Source of the DNA: a virus
Virus record (IMG/VR): IMGVR_UViG_3300045988_116329
Strand: one strand, 5' to 3'
Length of the DNA: 16,945 bases
Positions 1 to 16,131 of this stretch are shown piece after piece (within the stretch, counting starts at the first letter, position 1; each line of letters starts with the position of its first letter). Below the pieces are notes generated by a model. It worked only from the letters and a program-made list of their open reading frames with translations. It had not been told where the DNA came from and did no database searches. The position numbers and the translations under genes were made by a program.

Positions 1-286
1 TAGCGCGGTACAAAGAATGCACGAAGTTAGTTGCGTCTAACTTGGGACTATAGTAGGCATACCATTTCAAAAAAAACGTCGACAGTCTTGTACCCCATTC
101 GAGGTACGAGACTGCACGTTATTTGAATATGTTATTCTATTTTAATATAAAATAATATGATGGGGGTCGTTTCGAACGTCGAGATTTTTGGTACACCCCA
201 TGCACTTCACAGTGGTACAGCATTAGCGCGTTAGCGCGGTACAAAGAATGCACGAAGTTAGTTGCGTCTAACTTGGGACTATAGTA
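1..286. repeat. Left inverted terminal repeat (ITR) of a linear protein-primed genome
   Basis: Positions 1-286 are the exact reverse complement of 16660-16945. This was checked segment by segment, including the A8 run at 69-76 and C115. Pairing breaks at 287/16659. A terminal protein gene and a protein-primed polymerase gene are present in the window. Confidence 0.9.
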
Positions 287-392
287 GGCATACCATTTCA
301 AAAAAACGTCGACAGTCTTGTACCCCATTCGAGGTACGAGACTGTACGTTATTTGAATATGTTATTCTATTTTAATATAAAATAATATGATG
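232..392 (+). repeat. Internal direct copy (A') of the terminal 162 bp
   Basis: 232-392 repeats 1-162 in direct orientation with only two differences: A7 at 300-306 versus A8 at 69-76, and T345 versus C115. The first 54 bp (232-285) lie inside the ITR. The last 26 nt (367-392) are the final 8 codons plus stop of the tailspike CDS. Confidence 0.9.
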
Positions 393-2034
393 TAGCGTTA
401 TCAGCTTCCGTTATTGTTAGTGTTAATGGACCGAATTCTGTATTCGATATCTTGTTCCTTTGTCCTCCTTTACCGCCATAGCATATCAAGGTTAATGGAT
501 AATTTGATGGATATGGTGACTGCTCTGATAATGTGACATTTGAAGTATTATTCGATGTAACATATACTGTGCCATAATATTTTACACCTTGAAACTGAAT
601 ATCAACATTGCTATTGTTAACGCCGTAAATAAATCCATTTAAGTAGCTTGATACTCTTATAAAAGGCGAATTGCAATTATTTAATTCAATTATTTTTATT
701 CTATTAGGATATTCGCTTTTATCTATCTTTAAAGATAGACCATATAAGTATCCCTCTTTTAAATTACACTTAAAAGCCATACCATCACTGTCACGTGACG
801 AAAAATTACCAGTGATTTTTAAGTTTTTTATATTGCCATTGCCAACAATACTTATACCCATTTTATTTAAAACAAACGACATATTATCAAGTATAATGTC
901 ATTATATAATTTAGGCTTGTTTGTGTTAAACAGGAAAGCTATAGTAGACCAATTATTAATGTCACATCTAGTCATATAGATAAATTGACCATTGTTATAC
1001 ACAACACCATTACCACTATTTGAATAAACACCACTAATATTGCAATCATTAAAATACACATATTCCGTGTTGTCAGTGTTAGTTACTGTTTCTAAGGTTT
1101 CATCTGTTCCAATGCTAACGCAATATTTAAAATTGATATCATTTGAACCATACCATGTGCAGTTATTGAAATAAAGGTAGCCTGTTTTACATGCAATATT
1201 TGTGCCTTTTAAGAAGTCTGTAAACCAACATTTTCTAAAGTACACATATGAAACATGTGAGTCATTGCCTCGTTTAAAAAGTATTCCGTTATTTCTGTTA
1301 TTACCACAAAAATATATATTTTCAAAATTGCAGTGAAAAAGGTTAGCTGAAAATTCAAACATATAACTATTACCATTATATAATAATTTAGTACCTCTAT
1401 TAGCGTATAACTCATTTTCGCCCTTGAAAGTAATGCATGTCATGAAATAATTCACTATGATAGGTTCATTAATTAAATATGTGCCACTAGGAAAAAACAA
1501 TGTTCCACCCTTTGTTTTTAGGCACTCAATACCTTTTATAATATAATTGTAGTCATCATTAACGCCATCACCATATGCACCTAATGCTTTGATATTTAAC
1601 TCATTTTCAAATATTAATGTTGCATATAATTCACCTGAAAGAGTTTCATAATAAGCGTTAGGCTGTATATCTGTAATGTAATAATAAGCACCTCCGTTAT
1701 CGTTTATTTGTCTGTAACCTAAAGTTTTTACTTTCATGTTCTTTTTTAATATTTTGCTCTGCTTCATTTCTGTTACTGTTGCAAAACATAAAATATTTTC
1801 TTTTGCTATTGAGGTATACTCAGCAATCTGTGCATTGAAATTGCCTGTATTTACCCAGTAATTTTCATCTTCAATATCAATATTCGATGGAACAGGAATT
1901 TTACTTGTAAAGCTATTTCCCACGTGAGTAACTACGCTCAATGCTTCATACTGTAAAGCCTTATTCCACTCACCCATAATCTTCGGCACATACCTAGCAC
2001 CAACATACTGTCTGTTAATTAATTCATTACTCAT
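367..2034 (-). CDS. Tailspike / pre-neck appendage-like protein with right-handed beta-helix (pectate-lyase-fold) domain
   Basis: 555-aa ORF with SD GAGAGG upstream. It carries the motif GAYGDGVNDDYNYIIKGIECLKTKGGTLFFPSGTYLINEPI, typical of the pectate_lyase_3 / phage tailspike N-cap. Many N/C/F-rich pseudo-repeats follow, as in beta-helix coils. It is the last gene of the late operon, where phi29 places gp12. Confidence 0.75.
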   Translation of the reverse strand: MSNELINRQYVGARYVPKIMGEWNKALQYEALSVVTHVGNSFTSKIPVPSNIDIEDENYWVNTGNFNAQIAEYTSIAKENILCFATVTEMKQSKILKKNMKVKTLGYRQINDNGGAYYYITDIQPNAYYETLSGELYATLIFENELNIKALGAYGDGVNDDYNYIIKGIECLKTKGGTLFFPSGTYLINEPIIVNYFMTCITFKGENELYANRGTKLLYNGNSYMFEFSANLFHCNFENIYFCGNNRNNGILFKRGNDSHVSYVYFRKCWFTDFLKGTNIACKTGYLYFNNCTWYGSNDINFKYCVSIGTDETLETVTNTDNTEYVYFNDCNISGVYSNSGNGVVYNNGQFIYMTRCDINNWSTIAFLFNTNKPKLYNDIILDNMSFVLNKMGISIVGNGNIKNLKITGNFSSRDSDGMAFKCNLKEGYLYGLSLKIDKSEYPNRIKIIELNNCNSPFIRVSSYLNGFIYGVNNSNVDIQFQGVKYYGTVYVTSNNTSNVTLSEQSPYPSNYPLTLICYGGKGGQRNKISNTEFGPLTLTITEADNATSYYFILK

Positions 2035-2054
2035 ATCACTTTTACCTCTCTTTC

Positions 2055-2465
2055 TTAATAACTTAATACTAAATGTCCATAGTCATAGTTACCAACACCG
2101 ATATTATTTTCAATATCTAACCCAGTAGTATTAAATGTAATATTCTTCCAATTAGCAGGAATATTATAAACAATATATCCACTGTCACTAATAGTAACAA
2201 ATATCATAGTTGCAAGATACTCTCTAATAATACTTTCTGCAAAACTAGTATCATAGTTATTAATCCATTCCTGCACCTTTTTCATTTCCTGCTTTAACTG
2301 TTCAACATCATTACTAATAGCTTTATCATTCTCAATCAAGTTATTAATATATTCAACGCATTTGCAGATAACTTCATAATAGCTTAATTCATCATCATAT
2401 ACTAATGGTAACACTTTAAAGCACCAAAACCTAAACTCTGTTAAGTCTCTATAATTTGCGTTCAT
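2055..2465 (-). CDS. Hypothetical virion/tail-associated protein (N-terminal VLPLVYDDELSYYE motif plus coiled coil)
   Basis: 136-aa ORF with SD GAGAGGT 5 nt upstream of the ATG, tightly packed between the lower collar and tailspike genes. The heptad-like segment is NNLIENDKAISNDVEQLKQEMKKVQEW. The function is inferred from position only. Confidence 0.6.
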   Translation of the reverse strand: MNANYRDLTEFRFWCFKVLPLVYDDELSYYEVICKCVEYINNLIENDKAISNDVEQLKQEMKKVQEWINNYDTSFAESIIREYLATMIFVTISDSGYIVYNIPANWKNITFNTTGLDIENNIGVGNYDYGHLVLSY

Positions 2466-2483
2466 TATTACCTCTCTTTCTCT

Positions 2484-3245
2484 TTACCATAAAGTAAAGA
2501 AGCAATCACTGCAATCCTCAATTATTCGCATATCAATATTGAGAAAAGTCTCTCTAAATTTCTTTAATAAACTACTATAATTTTCTGTACCTTGTTTGCC
2601 TTTTACTGTCTCAATATACTTATCAGTATTATTAATATTTTCTGTACCACTTCCAATTTTATTGTCATCCCTTGTCAAAGTATCTGTACTTTCATTAGTA
2701 GTCGTATTATCTTCATTCACCTTAGTAACTGTGGTCAATGGTACACTATCAACAATACCTTGAGTATCCATACTATTCTGTGGTGTATCACTAAATCTAT
2801 TCAAGGTATTAGTATTACTTGTACCGCCACCACTACTAACATTTTTACTTGTACCACTATTAGTTTCTGTGTTATTACTTGTCCTATTACTTGTACCGCT
2901 ACCCTCTCTACTCCTAGTCAAATCAACATCATAAAAAGGATTAAACTCAAGCAACTCACTTTTATACAACTGATTGTAATAAGGCATAATTTCATTGAGC
3001 TTAGCATTTAACGCTAGTTTCCACCTGCCTACAGTTTCATGTGCAATCTCTCTTGTATAATAATGCTTTAATATTTTCCTGCATAAAACTTGTCTATAGT
3101 TTTCATCAAATATAGGAAAGTCAAAATTAAAAATCTTATTCCAACATTTATCTAAAATGCTATCAACATTGTCTGCACCATCACTCTCATTCAAGCCTGC
3201 ACTGTTTTCGCAAATAAATCTTACCTCTGTTGTGTACTTACTCAT
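2484..3245 (-). CDS. Lower collar (phi29 gp11-like) protein
   Basis: The ORF-track start at 3257 is a GTG. The ATG at 3245 (MSKYTTEVRF...) follows SD AAAGGTGGTGA. The gene overlaps the portal stop by 8 nt and sits immediately downstream of the portal, as gp11 does in phi29. The call rests on synteny plus a conserved-looking N-terminal half; the middle is S/T/N/G-rich and low in complexity. Confidence 0.6.
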   Translation of the reverse strand: MSKYTTEVRFICENSAGLNESDGADNVDSILDKCWNKIFNFDFPIFDENYRQVLCRKILKHYYTREIAHETVGRWKLALNAKLNEIMPYYNQLYKSELLEFNPFYDVDLTRSREGSGTSNRTSNNTETNSGTSKNVSSGGGTSNTNTLNRFSDTPQNSMDTQGIVDSVPLTTVTKVNEDNTTTNESTDTLTRDDNKIGSGTENINNTDKYIETVKGKQGTENYSSLLKKFRETFLNIDMRIIEDCSDCFFTLW

Positions 3246-4137
3246 TGTTATCACCACCTTTACCTATGTCAATCTCATTACTTAAGTTAGCTTCACTAGC
3301 GTCAAACGTATCAAGTACCTCCATATCCTCTCTATAATCAACACTAATGTTCAATCCAAACATTTTGTTAATCTGCTCACAAGCCTGCTGTCTCATATAC
3401 AATCTTGAGTACCTACTAGCAATAGTACCACCTAAATTCCTTTGTACTTCATCAGTTATCATTCTCTCTTTCTTCACAGTATTAACATTACTAATGCCTA
3501 AATATGTCAATGCTTCATTCCAGTACTGTGTCTTTAAATCATATAACTTATCAGCAATATAAGGACTCGTAGTATCTAAAGTTTTAATACCGGTTAAGTC
3601 TAAATTCTTATCACCGAAAATAAATGGTTCATTTCCCATATACTGTGCATAGAGATTTTTCATAACTAATCTCTGATTTTCAGTACAAGTAATAATCTTA
3701 GGTGTTTTCTGTTGTATCACATTAACATCAATAGTTCTCTGTATCTCATACAACCTTTTACTCTTTTCCTGCACATCAAGTATACTGTTAGTGTGAAGCA
3801 TGTTATTAAAAATAATAACACTGTTGCTAGGGTCAAGTTTCATTTGATACCCATTTTGTGCAAAAGCTGTCCTAGTAATAGGTATTCTATAAACATCAAG
3901 TGCACCACCAATCATAACCTGTAGTCCTAAATAGCCCATGACTTCATCCTTAAAAAATACTGCCATTCCGTCATTGAAAAGAGCTAACTCTAAAAACCTT
4001 GCATCAATAGTATCGGGCAGATTCTGCCAATCAAACATTGAAATGCTTAATTCTGTCAGTTTATTAATGTACTGCAAGTATGTTCTTTGATTCTGTAGGA
4101 AAGCTTCTGATTGTGTTTTTCTTCCTCTTCTTCCCAT
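3238..4137 (-). CDS. Portal / upper collar connector protein (phi29 gp10-like)
   Basis: 299 aa. It aligns colinearly with the recalled phi29 gp10. Matches include [26 protein letters not shown] versus [33 protein letters not shown] versus NQNAQKTPVLI, and [10 protein letters not shown] versus KKERMVTDEV, plus a similar C-terminal region ([11 protein letters not shown] versus INELYGLNVKV). Confidence 0.93.
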   Translation of the reverse strand: [299 protein letters not shown]

Positions 4138-4152
4138 TGTCTCACCTCTTTT

Positions 4153-5712
4153 TTAATTAGGACTGTTATCTAATGAATAGTTACCTATTTCACTAGCATT
4201 TTTCCAAAACGTTATACCATTGTCAAAGATATTTTTTATAGCTGTCACATCATTATTATTGCAATTATTTGAAATTACATTACATCCAATAGTTTTAGTA
4301 TAGTTCCAATGAGGTCTACTTGATATATTAGGTGTCTTGACTCTTTTAGTTGCATAGCCATATAAATCAAAATAGTCATCAATAACTCTTGCATATTGCT
4401 CCTTTAAGTGTATTTGAAAATAATAAAAATCCTGTGTACTTCTTACAATTCCTACACCACTGCCTGCATTTCCTTTTACATAATTAGGTAATAATTCATG
4501 TTGTTTATATTCTGCTACGCTTTCTTTTATTTTATCAACTACTCTTATTTCACCTAATGGTGCAGTAGCAGGATTTAATATTGCAAGACTGCCTGCATTA
4601 CTAATAGTACGTTTTACACTGCTAGTCATTGTAACTTTATTTTGCGCCCACCATATTTTGAAAGTATCACTATCAAAACTACATAATGGTAAATTATCCA
4701 TTGTTAAAGCATTTTGATTGGCACTTATACCACCATTGTAATTAATAGGTGTGCATACAAAAGTTAAAGTGTTGGGGTCACAATCTACATCAAAATGGCA
4801 ATATTCATCATTATTAGTAAAATACTCATATTTATAATTTGCTATTTGACTACCACCGTCACTCATACCTATCATACAAAATGGTGACGTTAATAGTTTT
4901 TTATTACGTGGAACATAATTTCCATTTTGCGCAGGTTTTGTTATGCTAAAATTTTTTCTTATTGCAGTATTAGGCATATTTATCGTGCCGTCAGTTGGTC
5001 CAAATTTTTTAGGAAACATAGATATTGAAACTATGCTATCTGTGTAACCTTTTTCATTCATACCGGCAAGCCATGTTGCAAGTTCTTTTTCTTTGTCTTT
5101 TCCTTGTTGAAATACATTGTCATATAAAAGAAAAGCAACGCAACCACTTGACACACCCTCATACTTGTTACCACCACTGTATTGCTGATTGATAGTATAT
5201 GGTGATTGAACTAAAATACCCCATTCATCAAATAATCCAGTATTATGTTTGTTACCATAACTGTACTCACCTAGCTCTAAATTTTCTGCAATAATATTAT
5301 CACCAACATTGTCTGTAATACTATGCTCTCTTTCAACAAAACTTTCTTTAAGAGTGCAATCAAATAGAAACCAAGTTTGCATAACATCAATAGTAAAATA
5401 AACATTACTAACTTTATCATTGACATACTCAATATTAGTAATAAAAGCATAAAACCATTTAGTGCTATAATTAGTATTCTGAAACATCATATAGTTACAA
5501 TTATAAATACTTTCAGCACTAGCACTCATTCTTACAACGCCTTGCTGTCCATTTATTCTCTGAAAGCTAGCCTTATCCATAGTCCTGCTAACTTTACTTT
5601 CAAAATATTCTTTCTGCGCACTTCTGTTTGCAAAATAAATAGTATCTTTATAACTGCTATCTATCGGTACACCACTACACAATTTGATAACACTATTAGG
5701 CTGTATCTGCAT
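4153..5712 (-). CDS. Tail knob / distal tube protein (phi29 gp9-like)
   Basis: The preferred start is the ATG at 5712 (MQIQPNS...), preceded by SD AAAGGTGGTGA; the track start at 5745 lacks an SD. YMMFQNTNYSTKWFYAFITNIEYVNDKVSNVYFTIDVMQTWFLF matches phi29 gp9 YIMFQNADYGNKWFYAFVTELEF...FEIDVLQTWMF. C-terminal IFDNGITFWKNASEIGNYSLDN matches IFDNGITLWHTDNIGNYSVEN. Confidence 0.92.
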   Translation of the reverse strand: MQIQPNSVIKLCSGVPIDSSYKDTIYFANRSAQKEYFESKVSRTMDKASFQRINGQQGVVRMSASAESIYNCNYMMFQNTNYSTKWFYAFITNIEYVNDKVSNVYFTIDVMQTWFLFDCTLKESFVEREHSITDNVGDNIIAENLELGEYSYGNKHNTGLFDEWGILVQSPYTINQQYSGGNKYEGVSSGCVAFLLYDNVFQQGKDKEKELATWLAGMNEKGYTDSIVSISMFPKKFGPTDGTINMPNTAIRKNFSITKPAQNGNYVPRNKKLLTSPFCMIGMSDGGSQIANYKYEYFTNNDEYCHFDVDCDPNTLTFVCTPINYNGGISANQNALTMDNLPLCSFDSDTFKIWWAQNKVTMTSSVKRTISNAGSLAILNPATAPLGEIRVVDKIKESVAEYKQHELLPNYVKGNAGSGVGIVRSTQDFYYFQIHLKEQYARVIDDYFDLYGYATKRVKTPNISSRPHWNYTKTIGCNVISNNCNNNDVTAIKNIFDNGITFWKNASEIGNYSLDNSPN

Positions 5713-5768
5713 ATCTTCACCACCTTTACAATAGCAGGAAAGCACTTAAGCTCTCCTGCCATACTATA

Positions 5769-7136
5769 TCACGCAACTGTGATAGTTGCTTCACCAACCT
5801 TAGTACTGTCAAACGTGCTAGTAGCTTTAACAGTAATAGTTCCTGCTGTAGCATCGTTATTAATCTTAAGCATACCAGTACTTGAAATACTAGCCTTAGC
5901 GCCCTCTTCTGCAATGCTCCAAACAACACTCTGTGGTGCGTAGTTATCAGTATTAACAGTAACATTCATCTGTAACTGACCGCCTGCACTAACAGTAGCT
6001 TCACTAGGTGTAACTGTAACTGTATTAACCGCAGGCGTGCCTGCAACAAACAATGCATTATTAGAGAACGGAGAAACGCTAAATGTTTTCCATACATGAT
6101 ACCAGTAGTTCCAATACAGACCCTCGCCATTATACTGCTCTGTAAAGTTCTGATAGTTGTCAAAAATCATAAACCAATCTTTGTCAACCATAACACAAGG
6201 AATAGCATCAAGTGCTTCAAGTTCTGCTGTATCAATCTCTACATAAGTAGGGTCATCAGCAAAGAGGATATTTAATCTCTCTATGTCTAAATCACCGAAG
6301 CTATCTACAAGTACATGGTGTCCGTCAAATTCTGCTCTATCCATGTTAAATGCTGTCGCAAGTACTTCAACATTCATAGTAGCGTCAAACTGCGAATTAA
6401 CTAACAAATACTGCTCCATTTTTGGTGTATGGTTCATAACACCCGCAAGGTTATTTTTTGAGTTAAGGAATGTAAGTTTATTTGATACACCCTTAATAGT
6501 ACTAACAATGCTATTCATGTTTGCAGTATTGATAGCAGGAATTGTAACTGGGTTCATCAAGCCCTTTAAAATATGTCTTGCAAGCATATACTTCATAGTC
6601 TGAAACTCATCATAGTTAGCACCAGTATACATAGCATCTACAATTTTAGCAATTAAATCTGTAATGCCGTCAATTGACAGAAAAGCCTGCCTTAACTGGT
6701 CATTTGAGATTGTAGCTTTGTAAAATTTCTGGTAGTTCATAATGTGGAACGCACTACGAACATCCGGTATCTCACGCTTGAATACGTTAGACTCTGCTAC
6801 CTGTGGGTCAAACTGGAATGGCTTTGCAATATTAACAAATACCTCTTCGATAGACTCACCAAACTCGAGCATGCCTTTTTTAAACATAGCCCACGGGTTG
6901 TCATAAGATTTACTTGTTAAAATTACTCTACCTATTCTGTTTACAAGAGCTGATAAAAACTCATTCTGTAAAGCAGGGTAGTCCATAATTACTGCACCGA
7001 TTTCTCTGATTGAGTCAGAGTCAGCCGTAGCCTGCGGTACATAATCTTTGTAGTTTGTACTAGCGTTATTTCTTATTGCATTTAAGATGTCAACGCTTGA
7101 ATTTGTAAGTGTTTTAATTTTTGGTTTTACAGCCAT
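5769..7136 (-). CDS. Major capsid protein (phi29 gp8-like) with C-terminal Ig-like Big_2 domain
   Basis: 455 aa. [22 protein letters not shown] matches phi29 gp8 [33 protein letters not shown] and [17 protein letters not shown] match VDKDWFMVYDN and GLYWNYYYHVWQTLSVS. The C-terminal [20 protein letters not shown]...TITVKATS...GEATITVA is a typical Big_2 fold signature. Confidence 0.93.
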   Translation of the reverse strand: [455 protein letters not shown]

Positions 7137-7141
7137 AATTA

Positions 7142-7462
7142 CTAGCCCTCTCTTTCTTTAAATAAATCATCAAAGGAAATGTCTTTATCGTCATCAATAA
7201 TATCTTCCTTTTGGTCTCTCATTACATCCGTAGGTGTTGTACCTGCGTCACCCTTAAAAAATCGTGCCTTGTATTTTTCTCTCCACTCATTGTCATTCTG
7301 CTCATATTTTGACTTCCAATCTGTGGTATCATTTGCACGTGTTTCAAGGTCATTGAATGTATCAGTAAAATTCTCAATCATAGTAAGGGTATTATCATCA
7401 GCATTATCCCCTGCTAATCCTCTTACTGCTTTCATAAAATCATCATGTGAAAGTACTGCCAT
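7142..7462 (-). CDS. Putative scaffolding protein (phi29 gp7 position)
   Basis: The ATG at 7462 (MAVLSHDD...) follows SD GAGGTG; the track start at 7471 is a GTG. The protein is small (106 aa), highly charged and predicted helical, with an acidic C-terminus. It lies directly upstream of the capsid gene. The call rests on synteny and composition. Confidence 0.55.
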   Translation of the reverse strand: MAVLSHDDFMKAVRGLAGDNADDNTLTMIENFTDTFNDLETRANDTTDWKSKYEQNDNEWREKYKARFFKGDAGTTPTDVMRDQKEDIIDDDKDISFDDLFKEREG

Positions 7463-7481
7463 ATTTCTCACCTCTTTTCGA

Positions 7482-8072
7482 TTAAAATATTGGTCTGCAC
7501 ATCATCCAAATTGGCATACCTTTGCGCTTTGTTGGTGTAGGTGTTGGTGGGGTGGGTGGTGTGGGTGGTGTAACACCAGTTAAGTATTTATACCAGTTAC
7601 TTGCATAAGTTAATCTTTTGGTAAGAGCTTCTACTCCTGCTCGTTCTCTTTCATAGAGATAAGCCTTGCAGGCTTCTGAGACATCTGTTAGCCGTGAAAA
7701 TTCTTCACCAGTATAATTATAACCTAGCGCAGGTTTATGTATCCATTGACCACCATATCCGTTTATTATTTCATCCCACATTAACTGTGTTTGTATTTCA
7801 CCAGTAGCCCAGTCAGAACCTTGCGCACTTGCGTAGTCTGTTAAGTTACTACTAGGTGTCCATTGAATTAAACCCCAGCCGCTTGAAGTACTTGCGGTTT
7901 GTTTCATTCCTGGGTTTATATTAGACTCTTGTTGAAGATTACCTAACATACCTGCTACACTCTCAATGGTAAAACCTTTATTATTAAAGTAGCCATAAAA
8001 CTCTGTAGCGTTGTTTTCCATTTCAGACTGTGTTAAATATGCACTTACGCCAACTTTAACTATCCATGCCAT
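7482..8072 (-). CDS. Phage tail lysozyme-family peptidoglycan hydrolase with Pro/Thr linker and short hydrophobic C-terminal tail
   Basis: 196 aa. VAGMLGNLQQESNINPG...GWGLIQWTPSSNL resembles the signature of the phage tail (tip) lysozyme family. It is followed by TPPTPPTPPTPTPT and then KRKGMPIWMMCRPIF. Confidence 0.7.
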   Translation of the reverse strand: MAWIVKVGVSAYLTQSEMENNATEFYGYFNNKGFTIESVAGMLGNLQQESNINPGMKQTASTSSGWGLIQWTPSSNLTDYASAQGSDWATGEIQTQLMWDEIINGYGGQWIHKPALGYNYTGEEFSRLTDVSEACKAYLYERERAGVEALTKRLTYASNWYKYLTGVTPPTPPTPPTPTPTKRKGMPIWMMCRPIF

Positions 8073-8738
8073 TTATCTAATCCCTAAACTAAAAAGTTTA
8101 TTCCATGTATTTTTGCCACATTGCCCGTCAACAGTTAGACCATATTTTGTTTGAAAGTTTCTGCAAGCTGACTCGCACACTTTGCCATATGTCGTGTCAA
8201 TACTGCCACTGTAAAAACCTAACTTTGACAAAAGTATTTCAAATACTGTTACGTCATTATTTTTTGAACCTCTCTTTAATAAATCCATATTATAACTTGC
8301 ACTTCCTTTACTAGTCTCATTATAACGTAAATGATAACTCCAACCATAACTTGGTATGTAATATTTTCTTATACAGATTTCTTTACCAGTTTGGTCTCCT
8401 GCTTTGCGCCCTTTTGTAGTTCCTTTTTCGTCAATGCTTGCATGAACTATGTGTTCACTATCGGATGATACACAAACATGATGCCCTACTGCTAAATGAA
8501 TGTCACCTTTTTCCCAAGGTTCGTTGCAAGTAGTGAAACCACAACGTTTCAACTGTTCATACAAATTTCTTGTTGTACTGTTGGGATTTACATTAAATCC
8601 TGCTTTAGATAAAGCGTGTCCAACTAATGAACTACAATCAAAGTCAGGATTTCCATTTCTGTTAATTTGTGAATATCCGTGACTATCGTCATTTGCTATT
8701 GCAATCATATAGTTTGTGTAAGTATCAACTTTACTCAT
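8073..8738 (-). CDS. Endolysin: papain-fold cysteine peptidoglycan hydrolase (NlpC/P60-CHAP-Amidase_5 clan) plus PG_binding_1 domain
   Basis: The ATG at 8738 (MSKVDTY...) overlaps the holin stop by 8 nt; the track start is a GTG. The candidate catalytic Cys is in NPDFDCSSLVGHAL, with His candidates in GDIHLAVGHHVCV / HIVHAS. C-terminal LSKLGFYSGSIDTTYGKVCESACRNFQTKYGLTVDGQCGKNTWNKL is a classic PG_binding_1 repeat. Confidence 0.8.
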   Translation of the reverse strand: MSKVDTYTNYMIAIANDDSHGYSQINRNGNPDFDCSSLVGHALSKAGFNVNPNSTTRNLYEQLKRCGFTTCNEPWEKGDIHLAVGHHVCVSSDSEHIVHASIDEKGTTKGRKAGDQTGKEICIRKYYIPSYGWSYHLRYNETSKGSASYNMDLLKRGSKNNDVTVFEILLSKLGFYSGSIDTTYGKVCESACRNFQTKYGLTVDGQCGKNTWNKLFSLGIR

Positions 8739-8940
8739 TCTTATCACTTCTTTCTACATTCAGAATGTCACATAATTTCTGCAAAATCAATGTGTTATCA
8801 TTTAGTGCTGTAGTAAACTTGTCTGTTTCTGCCTTGTGACTTTCATTTAGTTTCATACAGTACCACGCTAAACACAAACACATTACTATAGGAAAGCCTA
8901 CTGTTGTGATAGCCTGCAAAATAGCCTGCATTGTTTCCAT
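8731..8940 (-). CDS. Putative holin (BhlA/UviB-like: one N-terminal TM helix plus charged coiled tail)
   Basis: 69 aa with strong SD AAAGGTGGTGA. A single hydrophobic helix (ILQAITTVGFPIVMCLCLAWYCM) is followed by a charged helical tail. The gene lies immediately upstream of, and overlaps, the endolysin gene. Confidence 0.55.
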   Translation of the reverse strand: METMQAILQAITTVGFPIVMCLCLAWYCMKLNESHKAETDKFTTALNDNTLILQKLCDILNVERSDKNE

Positions 8941-8972
8941 ACCCTCACCACCTTTCTTTTATTCTCTTTTTA

Positions 8973-9001
8973 ATTATATCATATTACTTGAAATTTTGCA
9001 A
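8973..9001 (-). promoter_or_regulatory. Candidate sigma-A-type promoter for the late (lysis plus structural) operon
   Basis: Minus strand reads TTGCAA (8996-9001), a 17-nt spacer, then TATAAT (8973-8978) with TGn extended -10 (TGATATAAT). It lies about 30 nt upstream of the holin SD. Confidence 0.5.
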
Positions 9002-9016
9002 TAATTATGTTATAAT
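8988..9016 (+). promoter_or_regulatory. Candidate sigma-A-type promoter for the packaging ATPase unit
   Basis: Plus strand reads TTGAAA (8988-8993), a 17-nt spacer, then TATAAT (9011-9016) with extended -10 (TGTTATAAT). It lies 45 nt upstream of the ATPase ATG. Confidence 0.55.
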
Positions 9017-9061
9017 AAATTGAGATAATTATAGGCAAATTTAAGAAAAGAGTACAACAAT

Positions 9062-10102
9062 ATGAGTGAAAATAAATACTATGACGGAACTAAACTATTG
9101 TCAATGAAAGACATAAATGGATTAAAGCCTGAACTGTTTATATGTACTACTAATAGAAGTGGTGGTAAGACAACTTATTTTGGTAGATTAGAAGTCAACA
9201 GATTTTTAAAATATAATAAAAAATTCTGTCTGATTTATAGATATAACTATGAGCTTGATGATGTATCTAATAAGTTCTTCAAGGATTTACAAACTTTATT
9301 CTTTAGAAATTACACAATGGAAAGTGAACGCTGTGCAAGTGGTATTTATCATAGTTTGTTTTTGAATGAACAACATTGCGGTTATGCTATAAGTTTAAAT
9401 AGCGCAGACCAGTTAAAGAAATATAGTCACCTGCTTAGTGATACTGATAGTATGCTATTTGATGAATTCCAAAGTGAAACCAATCATTATTGTAGCGATG
9501 AAATAAGAAAATTTATTAGTGTGCATACTAGTATTGCAAGAGGTAATGGAGAGCAGGCGCGTTATTTACCAGTATATATGTTAAGTAATGCAGTCAGTAT
9601 TATTAATCCTTATTATGTGGAACTGGGGATATCTGAAAGACTAAACAGTGAAACTAATTTCTTAAAGGGTGACGGATTTGTACTGGAAAGTGGTTTTATA
9701 GAAACTGCAAGCAAAGCGCAGAAAGAAAGTGGTTTCAATAGAGCGTTTAAGAATAATGAGTATGTTGCATATTCAAGTGAGAACGTGTACTTGAATGATA
9801 ACACTGCTTTTATTGATACACCAGTAGGAAAAGGAAAATATATTGCAACCTTGCGGTACATGAACCATGATTATGCAGTAAAGCAATTTAGTGAGCAGGG
9901 ATTTTTATATATTGATGATAAAGCAGATAGCACATTTAGAAGTAAAATAAGTGTCACTGTTAATGACCATGACATTAATTATGTCATGTTAAAACAAAAT
10001 GATTTATTTATTAGTCAGTTGAGATATTACTTTGAAAAAGGTTGTTTTAGATTTAAGAACCTTAAGTGTAAAGAAGTATTGTTTAAGACTATCAGTTATT
10101 AG
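9062..10102 (+). CDS. DNA encapsidation ATPase (phi29 gp16-like)
   Basis: 346 aa and the only plus-strand gene. Walker A is TNRSGGKTTY and Walker B is SMLFDEF. VNRFLKYNKKFCLIYRYNYEL matches phi29 gp16 INRFIKYGEQFIYVRRYKPEL. LSNAVSIINPYY matches LSNAVSVVNPYF. Confidence 0.93.
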   Translation: MSENKYYDGTKLLSMKDINGLKPELFICTTNRSGGKTTYFGRLEVNRFLKYNKKFCLIYRYNYELDDVSNKFFKDLQTLFFRNYTMESERCASGIYHSLFLNEQHCGYAISLNSADQLKKYSHLLSDTDSMLFDEFQSETNHYCSDEIRKFISVHTSIARGNGEQARYLPVYMLSNAVSIINPYYVELGISERLNSETNFLKGDGFVLESGFIETASKAQKESGFNRAFKNNEYVAYSSENVYLNDNTAFIDTPVGKGKYIATLRYMNHDYAVKQFSEQGFLYIDDKADSTFRSKISVTVNDHDINYVMLKQNDLFISQLRYYFEKGCFRFKNLKCKEVLFKTISY

Positions 10103-10220
10103 GTATCTGCTATTGTACGTACACTTGATACTGCTAGGTAGCACGTTTGGAAGATAACGCTAGTATGTATTGTCGTAAATGCTGTGCGCTTGTGTTCTGC
10201 AATGGTTATAGATATAGAAA
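10103..10220 (+). ncRNA. Candidate structured RNA in the ATPase 3' region (possible pRNA-like packaging RNA); hypothesis only
   Basis: The segment has no ORF. Hand count gives 46/115 G+C (40%) over 10103-10217 in an AT-rich genome. Its ends pair: 10103-10108 with 10210-10215 (6 bp), 10110-10117 with 10198-10205 (8 bp), and 10121-10124 with 10192-10195. Three of these pairs are G-U, valid only in the plus-sense RNA. Internal stems are possible at 10128-10132/10162-10166 and 10144-10147/10156-10159. The terminator follows directly. Confidence 0.35.
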
Positions 10221-10249
10221 AGGCAAGAGTTTTATACTCCTGCCTTTTT
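10218..10249. terminator. Bidirectional rho-independent terminator between the convergent ATPase unit and replication operon
   Basis: Stem AGGCAAGAG (10221-10229) pairs with CTCCTGCCT (10237-10245), with one mismatch and a 7-nt loop. It is flanked by AAA upstream and TTTT downstream, so either strand yields a hairpin followed by a U-run. Confidence 0.65.
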
Positions 10250-10252
10250 GCT

Positions 10253-10513
10253 TTATTTGTAAATATTTATTAATAGTTCATTTAAATCAATTTTAGCTTG
10301 TTCAATGATTTCTAATATAGACTTATTAATGTCGATACGTATTCTTAGCTCATATTCATTGTCATTTATTTTAAGATAGTAAATTATTGAAGCTCTGTTA
10401 TATTTCTCTTCAATTTTATAACTGTTAAAATTAATTTTTGTATAAATCTCATTTAAACTCTCTTTTATAAAATCAGCAAAATGATTGTATTTTTTCAAAT
10501 AATATTTATCCAT
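10253..10513 (-). CDS. Hypothetical protein (last gene of replication operon)
   Basis: 86-aa ORF with SD AAGGAGAA 7 nt upstream of the ATG. It ends just before the terminator. I recognise no motif. Confidence 0.65.
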   Translation of the reverse strand: MDKYYLKKYNHFADFIKESLNEIYTKINFNSYKIEEKYNRASIIYYLKINDNEYELRIRIDINKSILEIIEQAKIDLNELLINIYK

Positions 10514-10528
10514 ATTTTAATTCTCCTT

Positions 10529-10762
10529 TTATTTATAAAAATGATTGTGTATATCTGTTGCAATTATTATATTTAATGAAAGTACAATTTCTCTTGTATC
10601 TTTTTGCTTTACATAGTCATATGATAATAGCTTTGATAAGTATAAACCATTCAAACAATATTCTATTTTATACTGTTCTGTGCAAGGTACATCATAAAAC
10701 TCGATTGAACCTTTAAATCTTTTACGCAGTTCCTGCACTACTTGTTCCATTTTTGTATTCAT
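10529..10762 (-). CDS. Hypothetical protein
   Basis: 77-aa ORF with SD AAAGGAGAG that overlaps the stop of the upstream micro-ORF. I recognise no motif. Confidence 0.65.
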   Translation of the reverse strand: MNTKMEQVVQELRKRFKGSIEFYDVPCTEQYKIEYCLNGLYLSKLLSYDYVKQKDTREIVLSLNIIIATDIHNHFYK

Positions 10763-10765
10763 AGA

Positions 10766-10891
10766 TTATCTCTCCTTTGTAAAATAATCACAATCATATT
10801 TGCAATCACAGAAACAACACATATGATTGCAAGTTTTTTCCTTTTTCTTTGCCTTGTGTCTATAATATAAATCTACTAACCATGTTATCAT
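10766..10891 (-). CDS. Cys-rich 41-aa micro-protein (not in ORF track)
   Basis: My own translation gives MITWLVDLYYRHKAKKKEKTCNHMCCFCDCKYDCDYFTKER. SD GAGGTG lies 9 nt upstream and overlaps the polymerase stop. Its stop sits inside the SD of the next gene, so it exactly fills an otherwise unexplained 137-nt gap. Confidence 0.5.
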   Translation of the reverse strand: MITWLVDLYYRHKAKKKEKTCNHMCCFCDCKYDCDYFTKER

Positions 10892-10899
10892 AATATTTT

Positions 10900-12843
10900 T
10901 CACCTCATTTCATATGTCGTGTCAACCAGTAATACTCCACCCTTAATTCTCTTTGGAAGTAATTTTCCGGGAACACATAAACCAACTTTAAAATCGCTGT
11001 AATCTCTTTTTGTTGCTAAAAATTTTAATTCACTTTGTGTATAATCGTCACTCTCCTTTGCTTCATAACCCTGCATAGATTTATTAAATAAGTCTTTGCA
11101 TTTCTGTGGCATACCTGCACACTTAATATCATTGTATGGTTCATCAACTGGAATTAAATCATTATGTGTAATGTGTTCTATATATGTTTTCTGTCTTGTA
11201 AAAATAGCTGTATCCCAACTACTCTCCAATTTCCAACAACAAAACTTTACAGGGTCTACTGTTATGCCATTTACTTTATCAGCAGGCAAGTCACAATGTA
11301 TACTATCCGTATCTGCATATATAAACCCTGCTTTGTCTACACCATAGTAATTTTGTTGAGCCGCTGTGATTGTAAAGTTTCTTGCGTATGATGTTATTGC
11401 ACTGCCAGTTGCTATGTGACCCACCTTTTTATTGTTAGCAGGAACTATATAAAAGCCTATACTTTCATCTTCTTTAACATACGCAACCTTGAAACTACTA
11501 TTAGAACTACTGGCAAGCTTGCCATATAGATTATTGAGAAATAGTTTAGCTTCCGTACGCTTTGCTCCTTTGCTTTTCATTTTTATTTCTGCATAATGAT
11601 TGATGTAGTTATCAAAGATACCTATGTCAGAATAAAACCAACATCCGTCAAGGATTTCAAAGTCAATCAGTTCATAGTGCTTTAACATTAGCTTGTAATC
11701 TGTCATTGTTATTGTCATTATTTGTGCAGTATCTTTTATGTTTCCATTTATGTCTTTATAGTATCTGTTATAGTTTTCGTTTTTGTCTAACACATCACTA
11801 GTTGTCAATGACTCAGTTCCTTTATATAAATGATTACCTTTTATTTGAATAAATGGTAACATATTTTCTTTAATATAAAAGCGTGTTTTTATTCTTAAAA
11901 AGTAATACTTATTTTCTCCTATGGCTTCATTAGGTATTATATTACCACTCCAAAAATAAGGTCTACCTATTGGAAAATAGTTCCCACTTTGAGAGTGCAT
12001 CATACTAGGATATAAAGAGTTTACGTCAGCGGTCACACCATTATGTCTAATAATATTTTCTTTTCCTTTTACTAGATAGCACCAACCCCCTCTATAACTA
12101 TGTCTTATATATTCGTCAGCATTGGATGAACCATATATATTTTTATCAATTGTAAATTCATCAAGCGCAGGGAATAAATCGTTATAATCATAAGCGCCTA
12201 ATGAGTTTTTGTATTCAGCTACACAACATGAGCCTATTGTTAATTTATCGTGTCCGTCATTAAATAACTGTTCAAGTGCTTCTTTAACTACTAAAACGTC
12301 ATTAGCTATATACTGTTTCTCTTCATCAGTTATAACGCAACCTGCATATCTATATCCGGTATATTCCATATCTAATTTTTGATGCTTTGTTTTAAAAGAT
12401 TTACCTATTTGTTTTACTGAAAATGGTAATAACTTTAAGCTATCTCTTAATTCTATAAAATGGTTATTAACTTTAATAGTTAACATATACCATTGACCCA
12501 TAGAAGATATTGTGTATCTGAATGTATTATTTTTCATATATCTTTCTTTAATAAATTCGCCTTGTGTACCCTCTTCATTATATTTTTCATATGCCTGCTC
12601 ATACTTTAGCTTTGTTAATAAATATGACAACCAAAAATTACCGTCAAATTTTAAATTATGATAGTATGCTATAATGTCGCAATCTAATGACTTAAAATAA
12701 TTATATTGTTCATCAATAGAATGAAAAATCTGCACGTTTTCTGTATATAATTCTACGCTTGCACTTGCCCATACTTCTGTAAATGTTTGACCCTTATATA
12801 CTGTTGTTTCAAAATCACACATAAATTTACGATAATTTCTCAT
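10900..12843 (-). CDS. Protein-primed family-B DNA polymerase (phi29 gp2-like)
   Basis: 647 aa. All signature motifs are present: ExoI CDFETT; ExoII YYHNLKFDGNF; ExoIII YIANDVLVV; motif A DVNSLYPSMM; motif B KLFLNNLYGKLAS; motif C YADTDSIH; KxY RQKTYIE. The start overlaps the TP stop (ATGA). Confidence 0.97.
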   Translation of the reverse strand: MRNYRKFMCDFETTVYKGQTFTEVWASASVELYTENVQIFHSIDEQYNYFKSLDCDIIAYYHNLKFDGNFWLSYLLTKLKYEQAYEKYNEEGTQGEFIKERYMKNNTFRYTISSMGQWYMLTIKVNNHFIELRDSLKLLPFSVKQIGKSFKTKHQKLDMEYTGYRYAGCVITDEEKQYIANDVLVVKEALEQLFNDGHDKLTIGSCCVAEYKNSLGAYDYNDLFPALDEFTIDKNIYGSSNADEYIRHSYRGGWCYLVKGKENIIRHNGVTADVNSLYPSMMHSQSGNYFPIGRPYFWSGNIIPNEAIGENKYYFLRIKTRFYIKENMLPFIQIKGNHLYKGTESLTTSDVLDKNENYNRYYKDINGNIKDTAQIMTITMTDYKLMLKHYELIDFEILDGCWFYSDIGIFDNYINHYAEIKMKSKGAKRTEAKLFLNNLYGKLASSSNSSFKVAYVKEDESIGFYIVPANNKKVGHIATGSAITSYARNFTITAAQQNYYGVDKAGFIYADTDSIHCDLPADKVNGITVDPVKFCCWKLESSWDTAIFTRQKTYIEHITHNDLIPVDEPYNDIKCAGMPQKCKDLFNKSMQGYEAKESDDYTQSELKFLATKRDYSDFKVGLCVPGKLLPKRIKGGVLLVDTTYEMR

Positions 12844-13376
12844 ATATTATCTAAATCAGTAAATCCAAAATATTCATTAATATCATTTGATTGTGTAGCC
12901 ATTACGCGCGACATATCGTGATTTGATAACAAGGGAATTAAATCTTCTGTTTTTGCTTGTACTACTTCGGAATAAACGCTTTCATTAATACTATCTATTG
13001 CAGATATAATTTCTTCTTCATTCTGTTGTAAATATTGTTCATATTGCTCCTCGCCAAAATCCTCTTGCATTTGTTTGATAATACCTAGAACAGTATAATA
13101 AAAATTTTCAAGGTTATAATCTATTGCTTCACCACCATGCGTATATGCTTGTTTTTTACTAGGTAAAGCCTGCAACCTTGAAATAATAGAGTCTGTAACT
13201 GTGTAAGTTTCTGCATGTTCTCTTTGTGATATTTCTGATTGTAAATCCTGCAAAATGTCTTGTGTTATTTTCTTAGGAAAAGCTTTTAAACCACTTATAT
13301 CAATTCCTTGTTGAGTTGCTTTATCCAAAATAGATTGATATGCTTGCTGATTTTTCGTCAAACGTTTCTTTGCCAT
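12840..13376 (-). CDS. Putative terminal protein (TP)
   Basis: 178-aa ORF with SD GAGAGGAGA. It lies immediately upstream of, and is translationally coupled to, the polymerase gene, as phi29 gene 3 is. It has a basic N-terminus (MAKKRLTKNQ) and an acidic C-terminus. The genome has ITRs. Assignment is by synteny and composition only. Confidence 0.6.
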   Translation of the reverse strand: MAKKRLTKNQQAYQSILDKATQQGIDISGLKAFPKKITQDILQDLQSEISQREHAETYTVTDSIISRLQALPSKKQAYTHGGEAIDYNLENFYYTVLGIIKQMQEDFGEEQYEQYLQQNEEEIISAIDSINESVYSEVVQAKTEDLIPLLSNHDMSRVMATQSNDINEYFGFTDLDNI

Positions 13377-13407
13377 AGTTTCTTATCTCCTCTCTAAATT
13401 AATACGA

Positions 13408-13431
13408 CCCCTGCTAACTTAATAGCAAGGG
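13408..13431 (-). promoter_or_regulatory. GC-rich intergenic hairpin between the SSB and TP genes (attenuator or processing site candidate)
   Basis: Minus-sense CCCUUGCUA-uuaagu-UAGCAGGGG forms a 9-bp stem with one G-U. It lies in the 74-nt gap between the two genes. The following tract (UCGUAUUAAUUU) is only weakly U-rich. Confidence 0.4.
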
Positions 13432-13450
13432 CCAGCAGTAAGATAAAATT

Positions 13451-13804
13451 TTAGTTTACTGATTTTACATCAAGGGTACAGTCGATATAAGGTCTGCCTG
13501 CCTTTGTTGTACCACTAATTTTAATAACGTTGAATGGCTTATCATGCATGATATTTACTATGTTATCAAAACTACGCTTGAATGTAGCAGACTGACAAGA
13601 GAATACCTCATTATCTGGTGTAATGATTGATAAAATATCAACATCACCATTGTCCTTTTCATCCGTAAATGTAAGATATCCTGCTACTGGAATAGAAGTA
13701 TCGTCCTCGACATTTTTAAGAGATACGATAGCTCTATCTAATGTCATTAAATATTGCTCAACTTCATTAAAATCTTTTGATTGTGTGTTAATTCTAATTG
13801 CCAT
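13451..13804 (-). CDS. Putative ssDNA-binding protein (phi29 p5-like)
   Basis: 117 aa with SD AAAGGAGAA. The C-terminal half ILSIITPDNEVFSCQSATFKRSFDNIVNIM...IKISGTTKAGRPYIDCTL parallels the recalled phi29 p5 TTIFAADGSLYSAISKTVAEAASDLIDLV...VVQGTSSKGNVFFSLQL. The gene order p6-p5-TP-pol is preserved. Confidence 0.5.
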   Translation of the reverse strand: MAIRINTQSKDFNEVEQYLMTLDRAIVSLKNVEDDTSIPVAGYLTFTDEKDNGDVDILSIITPDNEVFSCQSATFKRSFDNIVNIMHDKPFNVIKISGTTKAGRPYIDCTLDVKSVN

Positions 13805-13827
13805 AATGTATGTTCTCCTTTACTTTG

Positions 13828-14157
13828 TTATTCTGCGTCTCTCTGCTCTTTTGCCTTTGTTACTGTATCTGCTTCAATTGCTTTACGTGTTACAGGGTCA
13901 AGTATTACTGCTCCTGCAATAAAATCTGTTTCACTCATACCATAGAGTGCTTCAATTGGTGAAAGTTCTCTAACTGCTACACATGTGCAAACATCTGTGT
14001 TGTAATCCTTTGATACTTTCTTTAAGGCTTTTGCCTTGTCCTCAATCTTACCACTAAGTGTGAAGACCCTCTCGGTTGTTTCGGCAGTCTGCGTATTTAC
14101 GCAAAGTGCAGTTACTTTTGTTGAAATAATTGTTCTTGTTACCATTTGTTTACGCAT
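13828..14157 (-). CDS. p6-like histone-like dsDNA-binding protein, paralog 2
   Basis: 109 aa with SD AAGGAGA. It shares MRK..TRTI..T...DYN...LYG.SE.DF..AV.LD with ORF 16132-16413. Both resemble the recalled phi29 p6 (REITKTTVNV...MKRKY...VYELPVEKFLEVATV). It is the first gene of the replication operon, as gene 6 is in phi29. Confidence 0.5.
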   Translation of the reverse strand: MRKQMVTRTIISTKVTALCVNTQTAETTERVFTLSGKIEDKAKALKKVSKDYNTDVCTCVAVRELSPIEALYGMSETDFIAGAVILDPVTRKAIEADTVTKAKEQRDAE

Positions 14158-14258
14158 AATCTTGTCTCCTTTTCTTTGTATTATGATTTATAAAATTGCA
14201 ACACCAACAATGGTGTATTAGTCAAGTTGATTTTTGCAATCTGTTTACTGATAGCTTG

Positions 14259-14429
14259 CTATCTCTTGACTATCAAGCAGGATAAAAAATCGTCTACTTT
14301 ATGTCGAATAATGATTTTACAATCGTCTCGGTATATAGTTTCTGTTGTTACGTTGCGTTTATCCGTTCTGCATAAGACCTTTAATGTGCTAGGGTCTGTT
14401 ATAAGTTGTGCGTATAATGTTTCTATCAT
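14259..14429 (-). CDS. Hypothetical 56-aa protein (uncertain)
   Basis: ATG at 14429 (MIETLYAQL...) has an SD-like AAAGGCGGTGA upstream. The segment is relatively GC-rich. It is the only plausible minus-strand ORF in the 14158-14659 gap, and coding status is unproven. Confidence 0.35.
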   Translation of the reverse strand: MIETLYAQLITDPSTLKVLCRTDKRNVTTETIYRDDCKIIIRHKVDDFLSCLIVKR

Positions 14430-14452
14430 ATGTTCACCGCCTTTTGAGGAGA

Positions 14453-14491
14453 CCACACTAGCGAGTGTCGTATTGACTAGCGCTAGTGTGG
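14453..14491. promoter_or_regulatory. Perfect 11-bp inverted repeat (hairpin or operator)
   Basis: CCACACTAGCG (14453-14463) and CGCTAGTGTGG (14481-14491) are separated by 17 nt. An inner 3-bp stem (GTC/GAC) sits in that spacer. ACTAGCG also occurs as a direct repeat (14457 and 14476). No U-run follows on either strand, so this is not a canonical terminator. Confidence 0.5.
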
Positions 14492-14582
14492 GTATGCTAT
14501 TGCAAAACGTAATTTGTAAGAGATGTAATACCTCTTTACATATTATATAATATAGTAGGAATGTAAATACAGTATGTCATAA

Positions 14583-14604
14583 TTATGAACATTTTATGAA
14601 CTTT
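14583..14604. repeat. Tandem 11-bp direct repeat
   Basis: TTATGAACATT followed by TTATGAACTTT, which is 10/11 identical, in the intergenic control region. Confidence 0.6.
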
Positions 14605-14624
14605 TCCACAATTCAATTTTCTGC

Positions 14625-14654
14625 AATTTACGAAAATTTACGAAAATTTGTACA
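14625..14654. repeat. Tandem 10-bp repeats / helically phased AATTT tracts
   Basis: AATTTACGAA AATTTACGAA AATTTGTACA. AATT(T) tracts recur at 14615, 14625, 14635, 14645 and 14655, which is a 10-bp phase. Confidence 0.6.
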
Positions 14655-14659
14655 AATTA

Positions 14660-14905
14660 TCAATAAATATGTTGTACCATTTTATGATAATAATGCATAT
14701 AAAATATATTACATTGTTTCATAAATACTTTTTCTTCATTATCTATTCTTTTTGTAATATATAAATATTCTATTTTATACTTTATTAAATTAAATAACTG
14801 TGTTATTATTCTCATACTATTATTTTTACCAATTAACATTGTTTCAAATTGACTATATTCCTTGTGAATTATTCGCTCTAATTTATGTTTTCTTTTATTT
14901 GTCAT
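14660..14905 (-). CDS. Hypothetical early protein
   Basis: 81-aa ORF with an SD-like AGGGG 10 nt upstream. It is tightly packed behind the preceding ORF. I recognise no motif. Confidence 0.6.
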   Translation of the reverse strand: MTNKRKHKLERIIHKEYSQFETMLIGKNNSMRIITQLFNLIKYKIEYLYITKRIDNEEKVFMKQCNIFYMHYYHKMVQHIY

Positions 14906-14908
14906 TTT

Positions 14909-15169
14909 TTAAAAACCCCTATAATTAATTTCTAATTTAATACGTTTATACATTTCATCAATACACATTGTTGCATAATATTCATCTAAGTTTAATAAAC
15001 ACTCATATTCGCCATATACCATGTAAGTGTAAGAAGAAATTAAATTAATAAGTAACATAATATTGGCTCTAAAACTAACACAATCAACAAACTTAAATGT
15101 CCATATAATTTTTTTCAACAATCTGTATCTGCGATAAAGTATTTTAGCTTTGTTTTGATAAAAACTCAT
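14909..15169 (-). CDS. Hypothetical early protein
   Basis: 86-aa ORF whose start overlaps the upstream stop (ATGA), with SD AGAGG upstream. I recognise no motif. Confidence 0.6.
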   Translation of the reverse strand: MSFYQNKAKILYRRYRLLKKIIWTFKFVDCVSFRANIMLLINLISSYTYMVYGEYECLLNLDEYYATMCIDEMYKRIKLEINYRGF

Positions 15170-15462: not shown

Positions 15463-15478
15463 TGCACATTCTCCTTTT

Positions 15479-15860: not shown

Positions 15861-15901
15861 TTTTATCACCTCTCTTCATTACTTGCTATATTTAATTGTA
15901 A

Positions 15902-16130: not shown

Positions 16131-16131
16131 A

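Follow-up and report, generated by a model that had tools for sequence, protein, structure and literature searches.

Nested inverted ends of a phi29-like gut phage contig: mainly an assembly-graph effect around a probably genuine terminal duplication

The phage and the arrangement of its contig ends

The window, that is the whole stretch of 16,945 bp analysed here, is from a phi29-like, protein-primed podovirus of the human gut. It shares with phi29, Cp-1 and PRD1 a protein-primed family-B polymerase, phi29-like structural and packaging genes and inverted terminal repeats (ITRs). The genes and signals needed for the discussion of the ends are the following:

367 to 2034, - strand: tail-fibre/pectate-lyase-like gene, 555 aa (PF12708, phrog_23059)
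312 to 345, - strand: terminator hairpin of the tail-fibre gene (late operon), 13 pairs followed by a T7 tract on the - strand; 12 pairs in the outer copy at 83-114
10900 to 12843, - strand: protein-primed family-B DNA polymerase (PF03175, 138 bits against a cutoff of 25.8; phrog_1907, E=4.5e-125)
12840 to 13376, - strand: candidate terminal protein (TP), proposed by position only, directly upstream of the polymerase as in the phi29 gene order

A gp16-type packaging ATPase was recognized by PF05894; located at 9062-10102 (+), it is the sole large gene on the + strand, as it is in phage CS229P1. The upper and lower collar, tail and major head proteins were matched by PHROGs, and PF25622, PF05352 and PF16838/PF20934, indicative of phi29-type capsid, connector and tail knob, were matched on identical proteins of a sibling contig, L021. 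The gene order agrees with that of the Clostridium symbiosum phages CS229P1-3, the only isolates found, which are distant. The window differs from phi29, Cp-1 and PRD1 in that a complete terminal sequence is embedded in its assembled end, and in that profile searches returned neither a TP homologue (ORF 12840-13376 had no match in PHROG or Pfam) nor a pRNA (the Rfam scan of the window gave no pRNA or other RNA family at the gathering threshold, at which divergent pRNAs are commonly missed). Exact look-ups of the tail fibre of the window and of the spurious junction-spanning ORF 137-328 found neither on record.

The arms 1-286 and 16660-16945 are 100% complementary and form a perfect ITR of 286 bp, the pairing ending at 286/287 and 16660/16659; for a perfect inverted repeat of 286 nt in 17 kb chance is no concern. 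The left end is composed of segments A (1-162), B (163-231, 69 nt, GGGGTCGTTTCGAACGTCGAG...) and A' (232-392). Positions 1-75 equal 232-306 and 70-162 show 99% identity to 300-392, A and A' differing by one indel and one SNP only: the A-run at 69-76 of the outer copy has 8 A and the inner run 7 A, and the outer copy has C115 where the inner one has T345. A short unit of 55 nt, T, recurs four times (1-55 = 232-286 = reverse complement of 16660-16714 = reverse complement of 16891-16945). An earlier sequence-only reading of this DNA had described the nested A-B-A' pattern within a 286-bp ITR, with one SNP and one indel between the copies, and this was reproduced in full. Its short repeat unit is also present, but with a length of 55 nt instead of 54 bp, and the tailspike 3' end which it located in A' does reach there with its stop codon (367-369), the coding part comprising seven complete codons (SYYFILK) and 2 nt of the eighth rather than eight codons. 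The elements of the ends are listed below.

1 to 55, + strand: outer copy of T, identical to 232-286
56 to 162, + strand: L107a, the outer and diverged version of the tail-fibre terminator, the last 7.7 codons and the stop (A8 run at 69-76, C115)
163 to 231, + strand: B, terminal sequence conserved throughout the clade (GGGGTCGTTTCGAACGTCGAGATTTTTGG...), presumed TP-primed origin, embedded in the contig; located at contig ends in the relatives and fused to adapter in ODYJ01001197.1
163 to 286, + strand: B+T, 124 bp, regarded as the real left ITR copy, 124/124 identical to the reverse complement of 16660-16783
232 to 392, + strand: A', inner and apparently original copy, T plus L107b (A7, T345), continuous with the tail-fibre gene
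16660 to 16783, - strand: T'+B', regarded as the real right ITR copy; position 16783 is the expected physical right end
16784 to 16945, - strand: A in mirror image, as assembled on the right of the contig

The tandem repeat finder TRF did not report the 231-bp period, which is present in 1.7 copies.

Contig boundaries and the assembly graph

The final k of SPAdes and metaSPAdes on short reads is 55, and SPAdes leaves a terminal overlap of k bp on circular contigs. The window contig was taken as a product of a SPAdes-type assembly with k=55, its sibling contigs bearing SPAdes NODE_ names. De Bruijn graphs with k=55 were built for four candidate genomes, one without a duplication and three in which the extra copy was placed left, right or on both sides. 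The only branching 55-mers in this simulation were 1-55/232-286 and, with an extra copy, 21-75/252-306, together with their reverse complements, and the graph was the same for the left-only, right-only and both-ends models. The window itself starts exactly 55 nt before the point of divergence of the arms.

One and the same phage was found to be deposited at four lengths, 16,483, 16,678, 16,726 and 16,945 bp. The contig ERZ1749120 NODE_1121_length_16483 (L031) starts at window position 232 and is 100% identical from there, and both ERZ1749357 NODE_934_length_16678 and ERZ28622153 scaffold_885 (16,726 bp) start at position 21 (L021 and L030), the latter being 99.98% identical to window 21 to 16745. 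In L021 the right end is without the outer copy. The sibling contigs have a low coverage of 5-8x. What lies at positions 1 and 232 is no terminus but the branching 55-mer vertex of the k=55 graph; position 1 marks where the contig starts. The 54-bp ITRs considered ancestral in the sequence-only reading correspond to this vertex, and the 16,483-bp genome which it expected from the inner copies does exist as a contig, although only as the main SPAdes edge with its two 55-mer vertices.

The appearance of the outer copy at both ends can be understood from the graph. L107a joined to B would close a loop of 231 bp, leading from B to T, on to L107a and back to B; the assembler would extend outward from either arm through the L107a edge and stop on meeting vertex T again. 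Since the only edge into B comes from L107a, the outer copy would appear at both contig ends as mirror images, the segment 16784-16945 being the product of this forced extension, and the walk through the loop would give a perfect 286-bp ITR without any reads attesting the copy at both ends. The nested ends are mainly such an assembly-graph effect, formed around a probably genuine terminal duplication with an embedded terminus. As in known k-mer artefacts at the ends of SPAdes contigs, the contig boundaries lie on branching k-mers (k=55), the length of the repeat equals k and different runs give differing combinations of edges. In contrast to the overlap of circular SPAdes contigs, the overlap here is inverted, the vertex is the inner end of the ITR, and the loop walked apparently derives from a real duplicated segment.

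It is very improbable that the contig is literally correct, with a virion DNA of 16,945 bp that begins with TAGCGCGG on either side and whose 286-bp ITR is genuine. The ITR is indeed perfect, and metagenomic contigs flanked by ITRs are as a rule regarded as complete; but the position of both ends exactly 55 nt outside the divergence of the arms would then be a coincidence, the siblings of the same phage end at other graph vertices, and such a genome would have abandoned the invariant terminal sequence of its clade, yet retained it intact 162 nt further in.

The terminal sequence of the clade

Exact matches to a 25-mer taken from B came from IMG/VR and from metagenome contigs some 16 kb long, nearly always at their extreme ends. 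The core of B lay at most 10 nt from the end of the contig at 17 contig ends and, at all loci surveyed, never deep in the genome, and the first 30 nt or so of B are invariant across the relatives. The exact T pattern and the exact pattern of the L107 hairpin had no match in IMG/VR, which indicates that no close relative is present there, and a search of the B pattern against 185k bacterial and archaeal genomes gave no match and hence no host or prophage clue.

In ODYJ01001197.1, a relative, both contig ends read ...ACACTCTTTCCCTACACGACGCTCTTCCGATCT, a single T and GGGTCGTTTCG, the Illumina TruSeq universal adapter being fused to T+GGGTCG. The adapter sequence, 50 nt at each end (positions 1-50 of L017 and the last 50 nt of L014), is a contamination, yet it marks the physical ends. 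Ligation of the adapter at the start of B indicates a physical DNA end that was abundant enough in the library to be co-assembled, an evidence which concerns this relative and not the window phage itself. In all relatives the homologue of T is internal and follows directly after B. Their ITRs, of 68, 89, 89, 132, 186 and about 200-222 bp, all begin at B and differ in their inner ends, and the core ITR of the window (163-286 versus 16660-16783) amounts to 124 bp. Across the clade the outer ITR boundary is fixed and the inner one moves. These long and variable repeats, from 68 to more than 200 bp, distinguish the clade from phi29 with its ITR of 6 bp.

The 5' start of B is GGGG (TGGG in ODYJ01001197.1), so that the terminal nucleotides are reiterated, and no such reiteration is found in the sequence at positions 1 and 232. 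In PRD1 initiation takes place on a 3'-CCCC template end, and the sliding-back mechanism needs a terminal reiteration (PMC4974454); the clade resembles PRD1 in the 5'-GGGG reiteration and in the 3'-CCCC template, and the terminal GGGG would fit a TP-primed origin of the PRD1 sliding-back type. Judged from these comparisons, B (GGGGTCG..., at window positions 163 and 16783) is the true terminal sequence and B+T, of 124 bp, the true ITR.

The earlier proposal can hardly be upheld. It set the ancestral ends at 232 and 16714 with ITRs of 54/55 bp, and assumed that a 231-bp A-B extension, in which B was an added 69-bp segment, was attached outside and homogenised to both ends, so that each end would have two TP-priming origins (positions 1 and 232). 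That A is a secondary copy is indeed shown by its tail-fibre remnant, and a 16,483-bp contig with 55-bp inverted ends exists; however, the length of 55 nt and this contig are exactly what the k=55 graph predicts, and TAGCGCGG is devoid of the terminal nucleotide reiteration. When the termini of the relatives were compared with the 54-bp core, as had been suggested, they were found to end at the start of B (163/16783 in the window) and none at the T homologue, with the adapters of ODYJ01001197.1 as proof of the terminus. B is instead the conserved terminal sequence of the clade, presumably its origin, and the only origin-like sequence embedded in the end is B at 163; phi29 origins placed away from a flush end are nearly inactive (PMC4150772).

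None of the four deposited lengths ends at the real terminus. Origins, ITR lengths and genome sizes of protein-primed phages that are read from such contigs would be misleading, the "55-bp ITR" being the k of the assembler. In the record of the isolate CS229P1 (OP172772.1, Clostridium phage, L001) 51 nt at 16423-16473 lie outside the right ITR copy and have no left counterpart; the termini of this record may be imprecise too. A Nextera adapter with index (CAAGCAGAAGACGGCATACGAGAT-TCGCCTTA-GTCTCGTGGGCTCGGAGATGTGTATAAGAGACAG) was seen assembled onto the last ~70 nt of L040 (IMGVR_UViG_3300045988_165158), and likewise onto both ends of L057 (095171). Logan unitigs of related strains break within the ITR and were uninformative on the ends. 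A sister group (L060, L063, L068, L045, L058, L062 and L067) ends in another terminus, (CCCTG)GTTACTCACTTCGGTTTTTTGGTAC, which has only TTTTTGGTAC in common with B.

The probable duplication, its possible origin and related joints

The junction 162/163 reads ATGATG/GGGGTCG, the loop of the graph requiring ...AATAATATGATG joined to GGGGTCG. A complete terminal sequence B is thereby internal in the window, its first nucleotide being joined to other viral DNA. In every assembly the copy attached to B has C115 together with A8 (window) or A9 (L021/L030), and the copy continuous with the tail-fibre gene has T345 and A7. The assemblies represent two strain variants, 2 SNPs apart and each assembled at least twice, which differ in one tail-fibre residue (P0001/P0006) and in one right-arm SNP; with k=55 and about 5x coverage the latter, as found in L021 (T17 = G), is uninformative on which end has the copy. 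A competing branch from L107a into the tail-fibre gene was seen in neither strain variant. The homology at the joint is 0-1 nt, i.e. no microhomology explains the junction. The carriers of the junction, all of them assembled contigs, belong to one phage (99.98% identical) and possibly to one cohort, for which reason two variants constitute a thin replication.

The two differences between the copies both fall in the terminator, where the SNP drops the closing A-T pair of the outer stem and the indel lengthens the T-tract. The T of the closing pair is present in the relatives L040 and L042. Since T345 closes the terminator stem and is also the state in the relatives, C115 appears to be a derived change in a redundant copy. 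The suggestion that the outer copy A is secondary was confirmed in this respect: its remnant of the tail-fibre 3' end and its derived SNP show that the tail-fibre end was the source of the copy, for which a switch of strand or template in the course of protein-primed replication is a plausible mechanism.

The junction is probably real, because the copies differ consistently in the two strain variants and no difference would be expected in a chimera that formed in vitro from the inner copy; a co-occurring strain carrying the outer variant is unlikely, as it would create a branch from L107a into the gene. The consistent differences also argue for inheritance. It is likely that the phage carries a heritable extra T-L107a on an intact B, which amounts to a 231-bp B-T-L107 duplication at one end. 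The best explanation of the whole, which we consider fairly probable, is that of a k=55 contig of a phage whose true end is B and in which one extra, diverged L107a is joined to an intact B and is inherited.

The possibility of a pure artefact should be weighed against this. The genome would then extend from 163 to 16783 (16,621 bp, with a 124-bp ITR), and L107a would be joined to B only in chimeric library molecules or through mis-joined k-mers. The ends of the contigs are demonstrably graph vertices, natural ends are very prone to ligation in such libraries, as seen from adapter assembled onto them, further IMG/VR contigs from the clade also contain adapters, and the coverage of the siblings is low, at 5-8x. 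Nevertheless, an artefact appears unlikely. A chimera formed from the inner copy would be identical with it, yet both the SNP and the homopolymer differ consistently across two strain variants; there is no branch from L107a into the tail-fibre gene to indicate a co-occurring strain; random ligation partners would not be expected within 250 nt of the terminus, in direct orientation, in 4/4 lineages; and there is no microhomology for PCR jumping.

Several particular mechanisms were rejected. Random ligation of fragments to the ends is contradicted by partners that are all near-terminal and in direct orientation, and PCR jumping primed by the ...CCCC-3' end by the absence of GGGG beside any donor site. 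Slippage between TAGCGCGT (224-231) and TAGCGTTA (393-400) would give a unit of about 169 bp and no complete start of B at the joint. The same SNP in two strain variants would remain unexplained if a 231-nt fragment had been circularised and amplified by rolling circle.

Under the preferred explanation, that of an inherited duplication, the molecule would most likely read [B-T-L107a][B-T-...] at one end, with B presumably outermost and the full former terminus embedded 231 bp inside. At the tail-fibre end this would be a tandem repeat, C115 being linked through B-T to GGCATACC; at the early-gene (right) end it would make a 231-bp imperfect ITR, C115 being linked through B-T to CTATTAAATT. The outermost B would show as a continuation from position 1, ...GCATTAGCGCGT followed by TAGCGCGG. 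A homologue of the terminator hairpin (window 77-116) occurs also at the early-gene end of L040 (1-54, and 71-124 of the reverse-complemented end) and L042 (1-62), where it is part of the ITR. By comparison with the relatives, in which the donor is the opposite end, a location of the extra copy at the early end may be mildly favoured.

The retention of the first nucleotide of B and the homology of 0-1 nt at the joints suggest that a physical 3' end was involved, and not homologous recombination. The duplication could have arisen by a polymerase event at a physical DNA end, the product of which was then inherited. In one version a short nascent strand (TP-B-T-L107) would leave its template and be extended on the 3' end of another template. 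In the other, the 3' end of a displaced strand would fold back near its own 5' end, be held there by pairing of the ITRs and be extended to the 5' terminus; the fold-back would automatically make the opposite end the donor. Template switching by phi29 polymerase is known to occur in vivo (Murthy 1998, as cited in PMC4974454). As phi29 origins that are not flush with the end are almost inactive (PMC4150772), the embedded B is more likely a fossil than a second origin.

The terminal duplication, if real, belongs with the known behaviour of protein-primed genomes with respect to ITRs and embedded origins. Adenovirus variants that have embedded ITRs or terminal reiterations, or whose right end bears a duplicate of the left one, have reportedly been described by Haj-Ahmad and Graham in 1986, Larsen and Tibbetts in 1985, and Brusca and Chinnadurai in 1983. 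In these variants, as presumably here, near-terminal DNA was added outside the old terminus of a protein-primed linear genome, the origin became internal and the ITRs were then re-equalised; however, they are laboratory mutants of a eukaryotic virus, whereas the present case concerns a natural lineage of gut phages with a structure inferred from short-read graphs alone. Subgenomic molecules of phi29 that arise when its DNA polymerase switches templates have been described (Murthy et al. 1998, cited in PMC4974454). Such molecules are reportedly palindromic (inverted), formed by a switch to the displaced strand and not inherited. They have in common with the window a switching of templates by the polymerase near the genome ends during protein-primed replication and differ from it in that the joint of the window is direct (head-to-tail) and apparently heritable.

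Joints of an intact B start to other near-terminal DNA were found in three further lineages, L005, L015 and L008. In L005 and L015 the early-end sequence stops in or just after a conserved TATAAT and is joined to the intact B at the tail-fibre end. The two phages come from two samples, and their breakpoints (L005 9540-9618, reverse complement, and L015 1-60) differ by 2 nt, which may reflect a hot spot or chance. An RNA-polymerase roadblock at the TATAAT was dropped as an explanation of these breakpoints because a sigma-70 scan called no promoter at either end. The contig start of L008 (1-190, IMGVR_UViG_3300045988_088566) consists of a block of 52 nt of B, 42 nt similar to T and GGTGAG, repeated at least twice; this is a further terminus of looped or duplicated kind, or else one that begins with GGTGAGGTCG.

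A version of such joints with microhomology is seen in ODYJ01001197.1 and 069413. At the tail-fibre end of the former (L014, reverse complement, about 230-290) [B-T-R'50] is followed by B from about its nt 36, with GTACAC as the microhomology of the joint, so that a nested, truncated inner B lies inside the adapter-proven ends; in 069413 (L043/L051) the analogous joint lies at ACTTAAAAAAG. In both the ITR is extended by early-end DNA joined to the old left end.

On comparison of these contigs the ends of the clade seem to exchange and grow repeatedly. One may tentatively go further, on the basis of the window lineage, L005, L015 and L008 and of the microhomology joints, and suppose that the ends grow by near-terminal copies added onto the intact terminus through fold-back or template switch, recurrently and with embedding of the old origins, and that the range of ITR lengths, 68 to more than 230 bp, has arisen in this way; such a natural, heritable "telomere addition" is conceivable, though we would hesitate to call it the probable course. 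If the joint of L107a to B is real, the clade records a lengthening of the ITR by appending to an intact end with the old origin left inside. To our knowledge, growth of ends with an embedded old origin has until now been seen mainly in engineered or mutant adenoviruses. With its fixed, adapter-marked outer boundary and its varying inner boundary the clade offers a convenient natural system for testing the growth of ITRs.

Some further repeats were observed. In L054 (12986-13525, IMGVR_UViG_3300045988_083996) there is a tandem duplication of 306 bp which comprises the early promoter region (ATGTTCACAATTTGTTTACA ... TTGACT-N17-TATAAT) and a small ORF. The window region 190-245 and the homologous ITR regions of the relatives were found by alignment to be made of short repeats containing GGTAC; L020 and 136612 have a unit of 23 nt in two copies, and in L015 a stretch between GGTAC copies is deleted. 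TAGCGCG occurs twice in the window, at 224-230 and 232-238. T carries a conserved hairpin, AAGTTAG-N7-CTAACTT (25-45, 256-276, and also 16670-16690 and 16901-16921), which may serve in the ITR as a structural element or as a site of protein binding; its stem is kept in L015, with another loop and in an extended form.
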